A DNA stretch of 64,000 nt. Origin: a virus (taxonomy: Duplodnaviria > Caudoviricetes). The stretch is from positions 32,001 to 96,000 of IMG/VR virus record IMGVR_UViG_3300014208_000024; one strand, given 5' to 3'. The translations under genes were made by a program, and so were the position numbers. Shown one piece after another: positions 1,606 to 45,067 of this stretch. The stretch's first letter is position 1; every line of letters begins with the position of its first letter. The notes under the pieces are model-generated. The model made no database searches and was not told where the DNA came from. It saw only the letters and a program-made list of their open reading frames with translations.

Positions 1606-1732
1606 AAAGGGGTATAGAATAAACAGGTTGTCTTGGTTGCAAATCCTGGAGTTTAACCAGGACCCATTGAACTAAAGTCAATTGCTCTACACAGAGCTAA
1701 TTTGCGAAGTAACTGTCTAAATTGCCACCTTT
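1606..1732 (-). ncRNA. Y-RNA-like element Y1 enclosing an intact tRNA-like body with UUA anticodon
   Basis: Family stem GGTGGCAAT...AGTTACTTCG; inner cloverleaf ending ACCA. Confidence 0.7.
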
Positions 1733-3158: not shown

Positions 3159-3194
3159 AAAACAAAAAACCCAGACTCTTTCGAAATCTGGGTG
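3159..3194 (-). terminator. Attenuator terminator of Thr/His/Asn tRNA operon
   Basis: ACCCAGATT-TCGAAAG-AGTCTGGGT followed by TTTTTGTTTT. Confidence 0.85.
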
Positions 3195-3215
3195 CTTGTT
3201 TTTGTTTTATATGAT

Positions 3216-3305
3216 TTAACTCATAATAGACATATCACACCCAGATAAACATGTGGTATTATGTTTATGTGTATTCGTATTAATATGTATATTACTTGTT
3301 CTCAT
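3216..3305 (-). CDS. Leader peptide MRTSNIHINTNTHKHNTTCLSGCDMSIMS (Thr/His/Asn-rich)
   Basis: 29-aa ORF between promoter and terminator; 5 Thr, 4 Asn, 3 His; contains antiterminator TCTGGGTG. Confidence 0.8.
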   Translation of the reverse strand: MRTSNIHINTNTHKHNTTCLSGCDMSIMS

Positions 3306-3354
3306 TTCTTACTTTATTTTAAATAGTTAAAAAAATTGTTTATTTACCAATTTC

Positions 3355-3392
3355 TACGCAAATATATAAAAAAAGTTACATTAAAAGCAAGT
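3355..3392 (-). promoter_or_regulatory. Class I (probably early, host-RNAP) promoter TGTAAC-N-TAnnTTTGCGTA (representative of about 18 copies)
   Basis: Related motif near 5275, 7773, 10300, 10520, 19770, 23670, 25510, 27265, 27777, 30490, 32392, 33670, 38075, 40988, 42338, 45633, 48740; core resembles the Bacteroidota -7 element. Confidence 0.7.
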
Positions 3393-3443
3393 TTTTTTAT
3401 ATATTTTTTTAAATTATTTTTTTATTAATTGATTTCCAGTGTT

Positions 3444-4136
3444 TTATATTAAGCTCAAAATTGTCCTCTCAACAATTTTTTTCATATAATGCATATCTGT
3501 TTTATTTAAATTATAGTTTGGTGAAATAAAAGGAGCATGTGAATCCCATTTTCCACCCGTATTTCCATCTGTGGATTTTAATATTGTTTGTTTTCCCTCT
3601 CCCCTAAATGCTTTATAAGCGCCATCCTTTTCAGCTGATATTTCTAAAACAACATCTTCATAAAGCACTTCAACATCAACTCTTCCTGGTGCCCCAAACA
3701 TTATTTTATAATCTTCTGTGATTAAATCAAAAACTACAATTAAATTTCCTTTTTCATTAACACTTATATCTTTAATATTAATTGATTTTGGTTTTTCTTC
3801 AGCGCACATTTTACTTATAACCCACTTTATTTCTGAATCAATTTCTTTTTCTGTTTTTTCTGGGATCGGTATAATATTAAATGGATTTGTCAAAACTCTA
3901 TTTCCGCCTGTAAAAAGTAAATATTCTGCTCTTTCTGGAAACCATTTCAAAACTTTATGTTCGCCATATACTGGTTTAATATTATACACTGTTCTTCCAA
4001 CTAAATCTTCAAATTTTTCTATTCCCAATTTTTCTAATTGTTGTTCATATTCTTCTTTTGAGAAATCTCTAAAATTTGTAACATCAATTGTTGCAAGTTC
4101 TTGCAGTCTTTTTTTATATGATTCTGATAAATTCAT
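3444..4136 (-). CDS. Hypothetical protein with N-terminal LSESYKKRLQELA motif (probable virion protein)
   Basis: ORF; start moved to MNLSES; motif shared with 5308..5688. Confidence 0.7.
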   Translation of the reverse strand: MNLSESYKKRLQELATIDVTNFRDFSKEEYEQQLEKLGIEKFEDLVGRTVYNIKPVYGEHKVLKWFPERAEYLLFTGGNRVLTNPFNIIPIPEKTEKEIDSEIKWVISKMCAEEKPKSINIKDISVNEKGNLIVVFDLITEDYKIMFGAPGRVDVEVLYEDVVLEISAEKDGAYKAFRGEGKQTILKSTDGNTGGKWDSHAPFISPNYNLNKTDMHYMKKIVERTILSLI

Positions 4137-6371: not shown

Positions 6372-7100
6372 ATGGAAACTAAAATATGCTCTAAATGCCA
6401 TGTTGAAAAACCTAATGATGAAGATTATTTTCCTAAAAGGAATAATAAGCTTGAATATAGATGTAAATCATGTCGTAAAGAATATTACGATATATGGAAA
6501 TTTAATAATGCAGAAGCTAAAAAACAATATGATAAAGATTATAGAGCTAAAAATTATGATAAACTTAAAAAATACACAAACGAATATAATGAAAATTTTC
6601 TATATAAGAACGGTGTAAAACGCCATACAAAATACTGGCAAAACAACAAAGAAAAAATAAAAACAAGAAGAGAGAAAAACAGAAATAATGAAAATATATT
6701 AAGGAACAAAAAAAGGAATGAGAGGCGAAAAGTTGACCCATTATTTAATCTACAAGAAAAAATAAGAACAAAACTTAACAAATTGTTTAAAAACAATGGA
6801 TATAAGAAAAACAAAAAAACAATTGATGTTATTGGATGTTCGTTTAAAAATCTAAAACTATATATAGAATCTAAATTTGAATCTTGGATGAATTGGGAAA
6901 ATCACGGATTATATAATGGACAGTTATATTATGGTTGGGACATAGACCATGTTATTCCATTGTGTACTGCTAAAACAGAAGAAGAATCTTTAAAATTATG
7001 GTATTATACAAATCTCCAACCTCTTTGCAGTAAAATAAATAGAGATATTAAAAAGGATAAAATTAATTTTAACTGTGCAGCAATTTTAAATTTCCCTTAA
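6372..7100 (+). CDS. HNH-like homing endonuclease
   Basis: CSKC...CKSC; WDIDHVIPL...YYTNLQPL. Confidence 0.8.
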   Translation: METKICSKCHVEKPNDEDYFPKRNNKLEYRCKSCRKEYYDIWKFNNAEAKKQYDKDYRAKNYDKLKKYTNEYNENFLYKNGVKRHTKYWQNNKEKIKTRREKNRNNENILRNKKRNERRKVDPLFNLQEKIRTKLNKLFKNNGYKKNKKTIDVIGCSFKNLKLYIESKFESWMNWENHGLYNGQLYYGWDIDHVIPLCTAKTEEESLKLWYYTNLQPLCSKINRDIKKDKINFNCAAILNFP

Positions 7101-7753
7101 ACACCTGTTTAAGGCTTGCTTTTTTCCCTGTTATATGGTCATGTACCAAATCGCTTTTAAAAGTATACATTCTTCTTTTATCTCCCCTAAATCCAGTTCC
7201 AATCTGTTCTTTTCTTTCTCTATGCTCTTTTTCTTTTTTATTAGAATCATATAGTTTTTGTACCCTTCTTGTCAATTCTTTTAGGGCAATTTCTTTGTTT
7301 TTTAGTTGACTTCTATCTTCATCACATCTTACTACCAGTCCAGTGGGAACATGCTTTAAATTCACACAAGAATAGGTGCGATTTCTTGCTTGTCCACCTG
7401 GACCTGTCCCATTTGTGATTTTAATTTCCACATCACTATCCTTTAGTTGGATTTTTACTTGTTGCCCAGGCTCCATTACAGCCACAGTGACTGAACTAGT
7501 GTGAACTCTGCCTTTTGATTCTGTTGGTGGAACACGACTAAACGTATGACCTCCAGCTTCATTTGAAAAGAATTTTTTTACGCCAGCACCGCTAAAGACA
7601 TAAAGAAATACATCCATCTTTCTCTTCTAAAGTAGAGATGGAAAAATTTTCAACCCTGGCCGCTTTTCTATAAACATCAGCCAAATCTTTTGCAAGAAGT
7701 TTTGAATCCATTCCTCCTTCTGCTGCACGAATTTCACAAATAATTGTTTCCAT
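7069..7753 (-). CDS. prfA: RF1-type peptide chain release factor (no domain 1), two ORFs joined by a +1 frameshift at CUU-UAG-C (7597..7591)
   Basis: EIRAAEGG (frame 0); VPPTES PxT motif and GPGGQ motif (frame +1). Confidence 0.85.
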
Positions 7754-7810
7754 AAGTTTTGGTTTTTGATAAATATACGAAAATTTTTCTTAAAAGATAC
7801 AGTTTTTTCA

Positions 7811-7820
7811 ACTATTTATT
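7811..7820 (+). promoter_or_regulatory. Class II (probably late) promoter motif TATTTAT(A/T) (representative)
   Basis: Found 10-30 nt upstream of nearly all virion-motif genes and homing endonuclease genes. Confidence 0.55.
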
Positions 7821-7834
7821 AAAAATATTTATAT

Positions 7835-8992
7835 ATGGAAAAAATTGAACTTACTTTTTTACGCCCAGATGAAGATACTGGGAACTTTATTTATAAAGGT
7901 ACAGATGGAAAAATATACATTAGTATTGATGGAATAATTCATGATGTAACACAAGAAAGAGAGCCTCTCGGTCCTGTTTACAACACATTTGTAAAACCAG
8001 GAGAACCTGTTTATAATCCAGAAGATAGATTTGGTAGAAATCCAGGTAGTAAAATTCAAACAGAAAACCATAAAAAATTAAAAAACTTTATTCAGGAAGA
8101 ATTAATAAAACTTCACAAAATAACACTTCTTGAAGAAGAAAAAAGACAAATCAATAAAGAACTAAGACTTTTAAAAGAAGGAAAAGAAGATTTGGTGGAT
8201 TATGATGTTCCAGAATGGGCAATGTCTGCTTTAATTAATGGAGATTTAAGTGGATTAGAAGATGAAGATATACAAAAAATAAATTCATTTACCGAATCTG
8301 TTGCAAAAGCTCATGGAAATGCTCATTTTATGCTTGGCGATATTGATGGTGAAGATAATCTTGGATTTAAACACTATAATGATATTGATAATTTAGGAAG
8401 CAATGTTTATAGGTTATATATTAATCCAGACAAAGAAACAAGTTTTAAAGATATACCATTTAACAAAAGATTACAAGGTGGAGAATATTTTGTTAAAGAA
8501 ACAAAAGATGTAGATGCAATGTATAAAAAAGCTGGAATGGAACCCCCACATCCTGGAAAAGGAATACATACTAAAAAATTTCACAAATGTGTTACTTCAG
8601 TTGGTGAAAAAGGTGGAAAAAACCCTTATGCTATCTGTATGTCCTCTTTAGGAAAAAATAAAGCTGTAAAAGCAGATCATAGAACAGAAGAAGGAAGTTC
8701 TCCAATGGTAGATGAAATCAAAAAACCAATTGTTCCAATATCCGAAAAAACAAAGGCTGTATTAAATAAATGGATTCAAGAAAAAGGATCAAAAGAAGCT
8801 GCAGTACAATTGATAAATAGATTAAGCGAAACAGGTATGGTTTCTGATCTTCCTGATAGTATGGAATATGGACAAGGAGTTAACAAAATTGAAGCTTTGT
8901 TAAAAAGTGGAAATTTAGATCAAGCATTTCATCTTGCAAAATCTCTAGCAAAAAAATTAGAGAGAAAAGCAATGAAAGACTTTGGATTTTAA
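7835..8992 (+). CDS. Multi-domain hypothetical protein (probable virion protein)
   Basis: ORF; internal KLKNFIQEELIKLHK motif similar to 49260 and 36985. Confidence 0.65.
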   Translation: MEKIELTFLRPDEDTGNFIYKGTDGKIYISIDGIIHDVTQEREPLGPVYNTFVKPGEPVYNPEDRFGRNPGSKIQTENHKKLKNFIQEELIKLHKITLLEEEKRQINKELRLLKEGKEDLVDYDVPEWAMSALINGDLSGLEDEDIQKINSFTESVAKAHGNAHFMLGDIDGEDNLGFKHYNDIDNLGSNVYRLYINPDKETSFKDIPFNKRLQGGEYFVKETKDVDAMYKKAGMEPPHPGKGIHTKKFHKCVTSVGEKGGKNPYAICMSSLGKNKAVKADHRTEEGSSPMVDEIKKPIVPISEKTKAVLNKWIQEKGSKEAAVQLINRLSETGMVSDLPDSMEYGQGVNKIEALLKSGNLDQAFHLAKSLAKKLERKAMKDFGF

Positions 8993-9289: not shown

Positions 9290-9519
9290 AAAAATTATGT
9301 AGATTTGATCCTAACATAAATTTTCTAATCAGGTTGAATTAAAGAATGTAGAGTTTTTTGTTTTTTTAATCATAGGAATTTTTTTTCAAACAAATTTCTT
9401 AAGTGGATTTTTCCACCTTTGTCTTAAAAGACTCTTTAAAATAGATATAAATATCTTCCTACTATAATAAATAGTAAAAAAAAATCTCAACCCTTTCGAA
9501 TTGAGATTTTTATAAAACC

Positions 9520-10250
9520 CTGAGATTATAGGTTTAGTGAGTCAACTTTCGGGGGATTATTGGTTCCCCACCTTATCCACATACCTTGCGGCATGTACCA
9601 ACTCAATCTCGATTGGTTAGACCAATCACCTCTTTCGTCATAAACTACTCTACTGCTACTACCGCCATAACAAGAGTGCCCCCCTGCCATAACATTTCAC
9701 AATAATCCGTTAAACCTTGCGAGTCAAACGTCCCCAGTTCAACCGAAGTTGCCAGGATCTGAGAGACCTTTCGCCTATAACGCCAGCGGAACTTTTGCTT
9801 GCTTGAATTTTTTTCATAAAATTGAAGTTGTGCTTTTAATTGAAGATGTGCCGCTGGAACAGCTTCGTTCCTTTTGGGAACGAAATACTATACACCCTCT
9901 GCGCCCTTTTGCATCGGTACGCTCTCACCTTCGCCGCCCTGTAACTCTTACGAGAACGAGAACTCCAAAGATAAATGGAACACGCTCTAAAGCTTGCTAA
10001 ACCTTGAACATTATTCCTCGGCTTTTCCTATTGCCCCTTTCGGAGATCAACCGCCTCAAGCACTTCAGAGACGATATTTCACTCAGCAGTTGCCCTTGTG
10101 AAATGTACTAACCTATTGTATGCTCGACTTCTTTTCAAAAGCGACAAGATATTAACCTCGCCTTTATCCTGGTCACCCAGTTTATTTTCCTGACCCTTTC
10201 GGATCAGGCTTGACCACCAGTAGGTTGTCAACGACAGCACACTGCCATAA
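9520..10250 (-). ncRNA. Large structured ncRNA, GOLLD-like (about 730 nt)
   Basis: GC-rich non-coding island with many GNRA/UUCG hairpins, own promoter, boxA and terminator; size and tRNA-proximal phage context fit GOLLD. Confidence 0.6.
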
Positions 10251-10370
10251 ATTTTTTATCAATATTTTAAAGAACGTATCTTACTTAATTTTCTACTCTA
10301 TACGCAAAGATAAGAAAAAAGTTTCAAAAAAACAAGTTTTTTTTATTTTTTTTTTAAAAAACTTTTTTTA

Positions 10371-10454
10371 AGAGACGTAACCAGGCTGCTCAACCACTAC
10401 CCTTGCTTTCTTCCGAACCTGGGGGAGTTCGTAGGAGCCTGCCTGTTACGCTTT
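10371..10454 (-). ncRNA. ffs: Small SRP (4.5S) RNA
   Basis: Long hairpin with CAGGTTC-GGAA-GAAAGCA domain IV motif; boxA and promoter upstream. Confidence 0.85.
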
Positions 10455-31760: not shown

Positions 31761-32375
31761 TCATTTAACTATAGCATGATGTTCCCAATATTCAACGCTT
31801 TTTTCATATCTATCTTTGTCAATAGGCATCCCAGACCCTCCGTGTTCTATCCCCAAAGCATTTCTCATTATTGTAATTGGTGTTTGAGGAATTTCAACAT
31901 TTACTTCTTGTCCGAGAATAGCAACAATTCCCCAATCTGCATCAAACCCAAAAATTTCCGTTGTATTATCCTTTGCCATTGCTACTGCTTCTTTTTCAAT
32001 TTGTTCTTTTGAATAAAGGACAAGCATAAGCCACTCAGCTTTTGGTTTTCCAAGTGGTAACTCAAGCCAACGTGAAAGAATTGACAATTCTTTCTCTGTT
32101 CTTGCGGAATATCCACTTCTCAAGTATTGGTAATTTTCCAAGGTTATAGGTAACGATCCAACTCTGGCATCAGTAAAGTTTTTAATAGGCCAAAGTTTGC
32201 AAAAATCAGCATATCCAGGTAATAGTTTTTCTCCTATTGCCACATTATCATCTTCCCAATCAATAAGTTGTTGAATGTATGTTTCAAACTCTTCTATGGT
32301 TTTGTTAAGTATCTTTGTTCCTCCAAATTTTGGATCAAAGTGTCTGGCACCGAATTCTGTTACTTTAATTTTCAT
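31761..32375 (-). CDS. DUF3228 family protein
   Basis: LRSGYSARTEKEL.ILSRW; PITIMRNALG.EHGGSG. Confidence 0.85.
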   Translation of the reverse strand: MKIKVTEFGARHFDPKFGGTKILNKTIEEFETYIQQLIDWEDDNVAIGEKLLPGYADFCKLWPIKNFTDARVGSLPITLENYQYLRSGYSARTEKELSILSRWLELPLGKPKAEWLMLVLYSKEQIEKEAVAMAKDNTTEIFGFDADWGIVAILGQEVNVEIPQTPITIMRNALGIEHGGSGMPIDKDRYEKSVEYWEHHAIVK

Positions 32376-42073: not shown

Positions 42074-42251
42074 TTTTCATATTCTTTTATTTGCAAGAAC
42101 AAAACTTGGTTTTCCCAGGCAAACTGAATTGTTTTTGTGTTAATTCTTTCTGTAATTTGTGCACTCATATTATATTTTTAAAACAATATAAAAAAAAATC
42201 CCCCCAAAATCAAGAGATTTCAGAGGAATTTTAGAAACGAAACGAAACGAG

Positions 42252-42324
42252 CCCGACCAGAGGGATTCGAACCCACAACCATCTGTTTTAGGGACAGTTG
42301 CTCTGCCAATTGAGCTATGGAAGG
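42252..42324 (-). tRNA. tRNA-like gene with CUA (amber) anticodon, degenerate acceptor
   Basis: CTGT-CCCTAAA-ACAG; two acceptor mismatches, C33. Confidence 0.55.
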
Positions 42325-43290: not shown

Positions 43291-43335
43291 AATAAAATTT
43301 TAATTTAAGTTATAACCGCACAACATGTGCAATCG

Positions 43336-43409
43336 AAGGAAAGACAGGACTCGAACCTGCGACCAAATCGGTTCTAGAAACCGTTGCTCTGCCACTGAGC
43401 TACATTCCC
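43336..43409 (-). tRNA. tRNA with CUA (amber) anticodon
   Basis: CGGT-TTCTAGA-ACCG; canonical D and T arms. Confidence 0.7.
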
Positions 43410-44880: not shown

Positions 44881-44998
44881 TGTGCTACACATTGTTTTTT
44901 TACATGTTTTGCAAACTTTACTCACAAACAACTACAGCTGATTGTTGTTTGCTTTCATCATTCACTCCACAATCTGAAACGTGTTAAGCAGCCATTTG

Positions 44999-45067
44999 TA
45001 GGCGGAGATGGATACGAACCACCAATCTTCTATTCGAAGATAGACGCTTTACTTAAGCTACCCGCCT
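44999..45067 (-). tRNA. tRNA-like gene, 6-nt anticodon loop CTTCGA (Arg UCG-like)
   Basis: AGGCGGG/TCCGCCT acceptor; TCTAT/ATAGA stem. Confidence 0.55.

Follow-up and report, generated by a model that had tools for sequence, protein, structure and literature searches.

A putative programmed +1 frameshift at CUU-UAG-C in an RF1-type release factor gene of a huge phage

How can a gene for a peptide chain release factor (RF) be expressed when a stop codon cuts it in two and its halves lie in different reading frames? The question is raised by a locus in IMGVR_UViG_3300014208_000024, the 372-kb genome of a groundwater phage (Duplodnaviria; Caudoviricetes), from which a stretch of 64 kb (positions 32,001 to 96,000 of the record) was analysed. 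This whole stretch is called the window, and coordinates refer to it unless another source is named. The gene is read 5' to 3' on the minus strand: an open reading frame (ORF) of 53 codons ends in TGT CTT TAG C, and what appears to be the rest of an RF1-type factor follows in the +1 frame. The arrangement recalls prfB, the gene for RF2, in which Craigen and Caskey are said to have described in 1986 an autoregulatory programmed +1 frameshift. The phage gene is probably decoded in the same manner, by a prfB-type shift that would yield an RF1-type factor of 227 amino acids, with a feedback component that we infer.

A release factor gene in two frames

The upstream frame, ORF0 (7595-7753, minus strand), consists of an ATG at 7753 and 52 further sense codons. 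Its product, METIICEIRAAEGG...CISLCL, corresponds to the first 53 residues of RF domain 2 and by itself matches positions 101-144 of the Pfam PCRF profile (E 4e-6). At its end lies the shift cassette TGT CTT TAG C (7591-7600, minus strand, as read in the sequence), where TGT (7600-7598) supplies the E-site codon UGU, CTT (7597-7595) the slippery P-site codon CUU, TAG (7594-7592) the frame-0 stop UAG, and C (7591) the +4 base. The A-site codon after a slip is AGC (Ser54). From there the +1-frame segment (7069-7593, minus strand) runs AGC GGT GCT and onwards for 174 codons to a TAA (7071-7069), encoding the remainder of domain 2 together with domains 3 and 4 and matching Pfam PCRF positions 160-194 and the RF-1 domain. 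PPT stands at the position of the PxT stop-codon recognition loop of RF1 (7522-7530, minus strand; context FSRVPPTESKGRVHTS), and the peptidyl-tRNA hydrolysis motif GGQ (7390-7398, minus strand) is invariant in both homologue alignments. An earlier note on this DNA, made from the letters alone, had described the upstream ORF, its ending and the passage through the +1 frame to PPT and GGQ, and was correct in every detail.

The other frames offer little room. Frame 0 continues beyond the TAG for only 10 more codons before a TGA, a TAG bounds the +1 frame 35 nucleotides (nt) upstream of the last base of the frame-0 stop, and the +2 frame closes immediately. No coding sequence for domain 1 is found upstream of the ATG, where a divergent intergenic region of 81 bp (7754-7834), A-rich and without a Shine-Dalgarno (SD) sequence, is followed by a DUF6926 gene on the plus strand (7835-8992). 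A DUF6926 gene also lies upstream of the RF homologue in locus L160.

When CTTT is read as one step, the two segments give a joined protein of 227 amino acids. Pfam PCRF (PF03462) matches this protein in a single stretch (profile positions 101-194) at 65.8 bits, compared with 27.2 and 33.2 bits for the separate pieces, and the RF-1 domain (PF00472) scores 95.8 bits. Among NCBIfam models the RF1 score of 199.9 bits, which does not reach the full-length cut-off of 400 and comes from a match starting at RF1 model position 105-113, exceeds those of RF2 (129.5), PrfH (66.8) and ArfB. A phmmer search of the PDB aligns residues 88-313 of Thermotoga maritima RF1 as one stretch (E 2e-38, 135 bits; RF2 97 bits, PrfH 45.7), placing PPT on the PVT of that protein (VQRVPVTES). 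A structure prediction made without an alignment gave a predicted local distance difference test (pLDDT) score of 51 and was replaced by an AlphaFold2 model with a 52-row alignment (pLDDT 91.1), in which the junction 53|54 falls inside strand 48-55. The top Foldseek match of this model is ribosome-bound Thermus thermophilus RF1 (TMq 0.92, root-mean-square deviation 2.0 Å).

The protein predicted from the joined sequence and its model is thus RF1 domains 2-4, with domain 1 absent. Its assignment to RF1, which the earlier note had already made, is favoured because RF1 outscores RF2 in the NCBIfam, PDB sequence and fold searches, and because the PPT loop and GGQ are present. PrfH (RF-H) is a release factor homologue without domain 1 that is paired with RtcB, and the phage protein resembles it in lacking that domain, in its similar size and in its GGQ. 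This identity was nevertheless rejected, as the 66.8 bits obtained with TIGR03072 lie under the cut-off of 166.65 and far below the RF1 score, and the phage protein keeps a PxT-type loop. A frameshift in prfH is not known. An ArfB/ICT1 rescue factor, which would have a lone GGQ domain with a C-terminal tail and lack a domain for codon recognition, was ruled out as well, since domains 2 and 4 and the PxT-type loop are all present; the match to the NCBIfam ArfB model is limited to residues 100-133 of the joined protein.

Conservation of the shift site among phage homologues

Does the break between the two frames reflect decoding, or an accident of assembly or decay? One extra T would give the same picture in one assembly, whether as a sequencing or assembly indel or as a mutation in a decaying pseudogene. 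Homologues decide between these readings. Viral relatives were found with alignment queries (a single-protein scan of viral contigs gave no match), and viral DNA was fetched for 157 of roughly 550 loci, 154 of them scorable for the frame offset between the N and C parts. The offset is 0 in 102 loci and +1 in 52; none shows +2, nor is there any -1 case among the scorable loci. CTT stands immediately 5' of the frame-0 stop in all 49 distinct shifted genes (L154 being read at the second of the two sites described below), and the stop itself is TGA in 31-32 of them, TAG in 14-15 and TAA in three. In these genes the following base is C, G or A, never T, and at TAG gates it is always C.

The shifted genes fall at two sites. 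Site A, at about codon 37, belongs to GC-richer phages, and in 24 of 43 genes it carries GGAGG and a 3-nt spacer before CTT, which is the prfB layout. Site B, at codon 53/54, belongs to AT-rich huge phages (26-33% GC), including the present one, and always reads TGY CTT TAG C; it is found in this genome and in L031, L038, L085, L088, L107, L125, L154, L158/L159 and L160/L161. The site-B cassette thus recurs in at least 10 independent assemblies from different metagenomes, in genes whose C parts are 48-72% identical to that of the phage gene, while the codons around the invariant cassette vary between genomes. CTT accounts for 20.6% of Leu codons in the phage genome, so that its presence in 10 of 10 site-B genes has a probability of about 1e-7 even given Leu, and a +4 C follows only 8.5% of true stops there. 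Judged from these sequences, the conservation of the cassette is far beyond chance. The alignment of homologues proposed in the earlier note accordingly finds CTT TAG C conserved at the nucleotide level in the site-B genes.

A broken gene is therefore a negligible prospect. Ten or more independent assemblies share the cassette at a protein identity of 48-72%, both parts of the gene are intact and conserved, and the Logan re-assembly of what is probably the source sample, also groundwater, contains a contig identical over 6900-7900 at a depth of 14. Together these observations effectively refute an indel or a decaying gene. Where the earlier note had allowed for an indel error, or for homologues running in frame with no conserved site, what emerged was CTT at 49 of 49 shift sites and an identical Logan contig.

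The two segments might instead be made as separate polypeptides, which would assemble or act alone. The +1 ORF does have an ATG of its own at 7617, from which it would encode 182 amino acids, and gene callers call it as a gene. Independent gene calls on close relatives likewise give a 53-amino-acid ORF overlapping one of 182-184 amino acids, and the database homologues come in two lengths, about 180 amino acids (only the part downstream of the phage site) and about 225. The called +1-frame N-termini of the 180-amino-acid homologues are, however, variable junk converging on "..V FSG", which in the DNA is the conserved nucleotide cassette xGT CTT TAG C. The shift is pinned to the cassette in L107, L031, L124 and L152, whose +1 frame is open over just 14-17 nt up to the end of the frame-0 stop; a start would find no space there. 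The junction, moreover, falls within a beta strand of domain 2, and in this phage, which makes no use of SD sequences, no conserved start-like context is seen. Separate polypeptides are accordingly very improbable, if a little less so than a broken gene.

Comparative evidence of this kind shows that the predicted full-length factor requires a shift, that the shift is of +1 sense, and that it lies at CUU-UAG. The prfB-style slip at CUU-UAG-C put forward in the earlier note is upheld by the cassette kept across those assemblies, and a programmed +1 frameshift is well supported by the sequences as the mode of decoding.

Gates, feedback and suppressor tRNAs

What would the shift be for? In the proposed mechanism, ribosomes would start at the ATG at 7753, translate 53 codons and pause, with the P site occupied by peptidyl-tRNA-Leu on CUU and the A site by UAG in its weak UAG-C context. 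Binding of an RF1-type activity at this point would release the 53-amino-acid peptide; otherwise the tRNA-Leu could re-pair from CUU to UUU, AGC would enter the A site, and the 227-amino-acid factor would be made. The yield of this factor would then drop as the capacity for UAG termination rises, a response expected because it is the established mechanism of prfB (PMC12421855). Should the phage factor itself read UAG, a negative feedback loop would top up RF1-type activity during infection. The UAG at the gate matches the predicted specificity of a PxT-type factor. What we infer beyond the shift itself is its kinetics, the factor's specificity and the feedback loop. A tRNA-Leu(AAG) gene suited to the slip lies outside the window (G000:C1:22497-22579, G000 being the phage genome); its product is the Watson-Crick partner of CUU and can pair with UUU. 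The same tRNA is encoded in related genomes G002 and G005 and is missing from G001 and G003.

The wider family bears on the purpose of the gate. Among distinct homologues whose two parts are in frame, 64 of 66 carry an internal TGA, rarely TAG, at about codons 35-40, 44-48 or 52-53 (for instance L001, L022, L027 and L006:2486-3172). In the alignment, the first of these positions is the column of the invariant Trp of cellular RF1 and of CTT in site-A genes, and the last lies one codon before the site-B CTT. A count over the 80 viral loci closest to the C part finds 47 that need a +1 shift at a CTT-stop, 31 with internal in-frame stops, one plain and one mis-anchored; the last is the same gene as L006, with an in-frame TGA, and hence gated, so that 79 of the 80 are gated. 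In a tree of the C part alone, the phage genes form one clade as against four cellular RF1 sequences, and the gene in the window sits inside a 31-member AT-rich clade with support of 96. L038 and L154 are peculiar in combining an in-frame TGA at codon 38-39 with CTT TAG C at site B, so that two recoding events would be needed.

In databases the in-frame TGA homologues appear as code-4 proteins whose gate residue is W. A plain code-4 reading was ruled out: in their C parts TGG is used and TGA is absent, a freed TGA brings their flanks no greater gain than a freed TAG does, and in G005, a complete 362-kb genome with ATC TGA ATA at site B, the code is standard and a UCA tRNA is lacking.

These gates support a second account of the phage gene, in which the +1 frameshift is real and serves as a gate or attenuator, either holding a possibly toxic truncated RF at a low level or reporting the termination capacity of the host, with no meaningful self-feedback. 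Gating is nearly universal among the closest loci, and the gate codon is UGA at 31-32 of 49 shift sites and at nearly all in-frame gates, even though the recognition loop stays PPT or SPT throughout the family. In-frame TGA is confined to gate positions in phages that, where tested, use the standard code and lack a UCA tRNA, and at least four switches of gate type have occurred within the clade of the phage gene. RF overexpression is reported to be harmful (PMC12421855). Against this account, every site-B shift gate is UAG, the very codon expected for an RF1-type factor; a factor active on UAG would make feedback unavoidable, and prfB offers the precedent. A gate without feedback is rather unlikely.

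For a prfB-type switch with feedback, several observations weigh on the other side. RF2-specific UGA occupies two thirds of the family shift sites with the PPT loop unchanged, and within the clade of the phage gene shift gates with UAG are interspersed with in-frame UGA gates, supported branches of the tree forcing the at least four switches already mentioned. Because UGA gates predominate with the same PPT loop and gate types interconvert in this clade, feedback as the selected function is doubtful. No link was found in the family between gate codon and recognition loop, nor, in G000, G001, G002, G003 and G005, between gate codon and phage suppressor tRNA. The match of UAG to the specificity of the factor, read in the earlier note as a sensor of RF1 activity, therefore holds within the clade of the phage gene and is weakened by the UGA sites elsewhere in the family. 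The UAG may even be dictated by the codon that must follow the shift, AGC for Ser, as RF1 has SG there. Residue 72 of the joined protein (7537-7539, minus strand), the third residue ahead of the PxT proline, is Ser, and in the nearest relatives it is Ser or His, whereas RF1 and most phage homologues have Gln. In RF1-ribosome structures this Gln contacts the third stop-codon base, and its replacement by Ser may alter the reading of that base.

The efficiency of the shift raises a further difficulty. An SD stimulator is essential for efficient shifting in prfB. None was found within 18 nt upstream of CTT in any site-B gene, as the earlier note had observed for this gene, and no stable downstream RNA structure that might stimulate the shift was found in five genes (Z-scores 0.04 to 1.8). 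The absence of both suggests a modest shift efficiency, and the prfB motif is reported to shift poorly in Flavobacterium johnsoniae, which does not use SD sequences (PMC12421855). Identical fragments from a second study miss 7558-7593 and so do not bridge the site, and a search of RNA runs found none containing the stretch. Finally, CUA tRNAs of the phage would decode the UAG of the gate and keep ribosomes in frame 0, which comes to a dead end 10 codons on with a product of 64 amino acids.

These tRNAs are part of a large set. The genome, a single contig of 372,283 bp with 28.7% GC that is complete by the CheckV estimate, holds 46 tRNA genes. Two tRNAs with CUA anticodons, which would read amber, were found by ARAGORN at 42251-42324 (minus strand; Rfam tRNA 50.2 bits) and 43335-43409 (minus strand; 55.5 bits), and one with a UUA anticodon, reading ochre, at 1634-1706 (minus strand; 54.7 bits). 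Relatives G001, G003 and G005 also have CUA tRNAs (the gate of G005 being UGA), G002 has none, and a UCA tRNA occurs in no phage tested. The CUA and UUA tRNAs of the phage, which the earlier note had not mentioned, are possible competitors at the gate UAG.

A CUA tRNA might also change the frame itself, by reading UAGC as a quadruplet and so arriving at the same downstream frame. The phage does encode two CUA tRNAs together with one tRNA whose anticodon loop is abnormal, the +4 C is invariant at TAG sites, and CUA tRNAs recur in G001, G003 and G005. A quadruplet reading nonetheless leaves unexplained the CTT found in all 49 shifted genes, UGA and UAA gates included. According to ARAGORN the CUA tRNAs have ordinary anticodon loops of 7 nt, and G002 carries the same cassette without a CUA tRNA. 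The Ser (AGC) of the +1 slip, moreover, agrees with the RF1 consensus SG. A tRNA-driven change of frame is therefore most unlikely. The tRNA-like gene at 44998-45067 (minus strand) has a two-base anticodon '(tc)' in ARAGORN and an Rfam tRNA score of 50.4 bits; comparable odd anticodons, '(ga)', '(gc)' or '(agac)', occur in each related huge phage.

The suppressor-type tRNAs are not accompanied by a global change of code. Over 399 ORFs the stops are TAA in 329 (82%), TGA in 42 and TAG in 28 (7%). Recoding of stop codons across the genome was ruled out, as ORF coverage is 0.85 with code 11, 0.863 when TAG is freed and 0.874 when TGA is; for TAG in particular, no long frames are split by it, and extensions after TAG resemble those after TAA or TGA. 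The phage uses the standard code.

Start contexts say something about the host. An SD-like motif at -20 to -3 precedes only 2.2% of 362 ORFs, and positions -14 to -10 are A-rich, which agrees with a host that makes no use of SD sequences, as far as the phage genes can tell. The Bacteroidota host suggested in the earlier note is no more than hinted at by this non-SD use and by a Por_Secre_tail gene (type IX secretion system) adjoining the RF homologue in close relatives. A Por_Secre_tail search of the phage genome gave no match, and neither did its control. TAnnTTTG promoter boxes are weakly enriched, and a scan of cellular genome contigs returned only cellular RF1 at 39-45% identity, with no clue to the host.

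The surroundings of the gene contain further features. An endonuclease VII-like gene (phrog_1035) at 6372-7100 (plus strand) runs towards the RF gene and overlaps its 3' end by 32 nt. L006 has an endonuclease homologue in the same place, and a second endonuclease gene is inserted there just upstream of the RF gene, next to a leftover copy of the RF N-terminus (1708-2499 and 3182-3805 in that locus). G005 holds a second, partial RF copy (G005:C1:51866-52183). This looks like the coming and going of homing endonucleases at the RF locus. At 9517-9900 (minus strand), 1.8 kb away from the RF gene, there is a full-length GOLLD RNA (Rfam RF02032, 226.6 bits), and at 10370-10453 (minus strand) a match to bacterial small signal recognition particle RNA (RF00169), whose 42.3 bits barely exceed the cut-off of 40.

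Relation to known recoding and meaning for termination in huge phages

The closest parallel is prfB, whose shift site is laid out as SD-N3-CUU UGA C (PMC12421855). Both genes have a CUU P-site codon with the stop directly after it and a +4 C, both regain a class-I release factor by a +1 shift, and in the phage gene, too, the stop is one that the encoded type of factor should read. Relatives with site A even share the GGAGG and the 3-nt spacer. The phage gene differs in being RF1-like with UAG as its stop, whereas prfB encodes RF2 and uses UGA. Its clade lacks the SD stimulator, and in its family the stop is often the non-cognate UGA. Its site, moreover, lies in domain 2 (codon 53/54, or about 37 in others), while that of prfB is at codon 26 in domain 1, and from this difference in position an independent origin follows. 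A 2025 survey that covered over 12,000 genomes found no programmed frameshift in prfA and, among 8,164 prfB motifs, none with TAG (PMC12421855).

A 2016 review of recoding likewise gives an RF1/UAG counterpart as unknown and cites only an eRF1-type gene of Mimivirus (PMC5009743). In Mimivirus and Megavirus, a class-I release factor gene is decoded by frameshift and readthrough (Jeudy et al. 2012, PMC3521657). There, as here, internal stops in a viral termination factor are bypassed by recoding, and L038 and L154, with their UGA and CUU-UAG shift, may be compared. The Mimivirus protein is, however, an eRF1/aRF1 homologue in an amoebal virus, whereas the phage protein is a homologue of bacterial RF1, and the two are not homologous. 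The Mimivirus and phage designs are convergent.

Huge phages and phages with recoded stop codons encode RF1 or RF2 (Al-Shayeb et al. 2020, PMC7162821; Borges et al., 10.1101/2021.08.26.457843). The present phage resembles them in its many tRNAs, its suppressor-type tRNAs and its release factor gene, but in those reports RF1 is tied to TGA-recoded phages, whereas the code here is the standard one. Neither report mentions a frameshift or an internal stop in RF genes. In the literature searched, phage RF1 and RF2 are mentioned with no recoding in their genes, and no description of the motif or of frameshifting in a phage RF was found.

A wider reading joins these strands and is offered tentatively. 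Nearly all short RF1-type genes of phages may be obligatorily stop-gated within their first 55 or so codons, by a +1 shift at CUU-stop or by an in-frame UGA or UAG. The gates, which lie at two hot spots, one of them replacing the Trp of cellular RF1, and which interconvert, would then act as a viral sensor of the termination capacity of the cell. Together with the phage's own amber and ochre tRNAs, such a sensor would balance termination against readthrough, and the gene in the window would be the first natural RF1-sensing frameshift switch.

The frameshift in prfB is textbook translational autoregulation. The phage genes show, on the comparison of their sequences, that the same device has apparently arisen independently in RF1-type genes, with UAG, UGA or UAA as the stop, with or without an SD sequence, and at two new positions. 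For annotation this matters in that such genes are routinely called as truncated ORFs of 180 amino acids, or else as code-4 proteins whose gate is read as Trp. A natural CUU-UAG shift site that is independent of SD sequences could serve as a tool for +1 frameshifting in organisms that do not use them, or as an RF1-responsive switch. The gene is also relevant to how huge phages handle termination beside suppressor tRNAs of their own.

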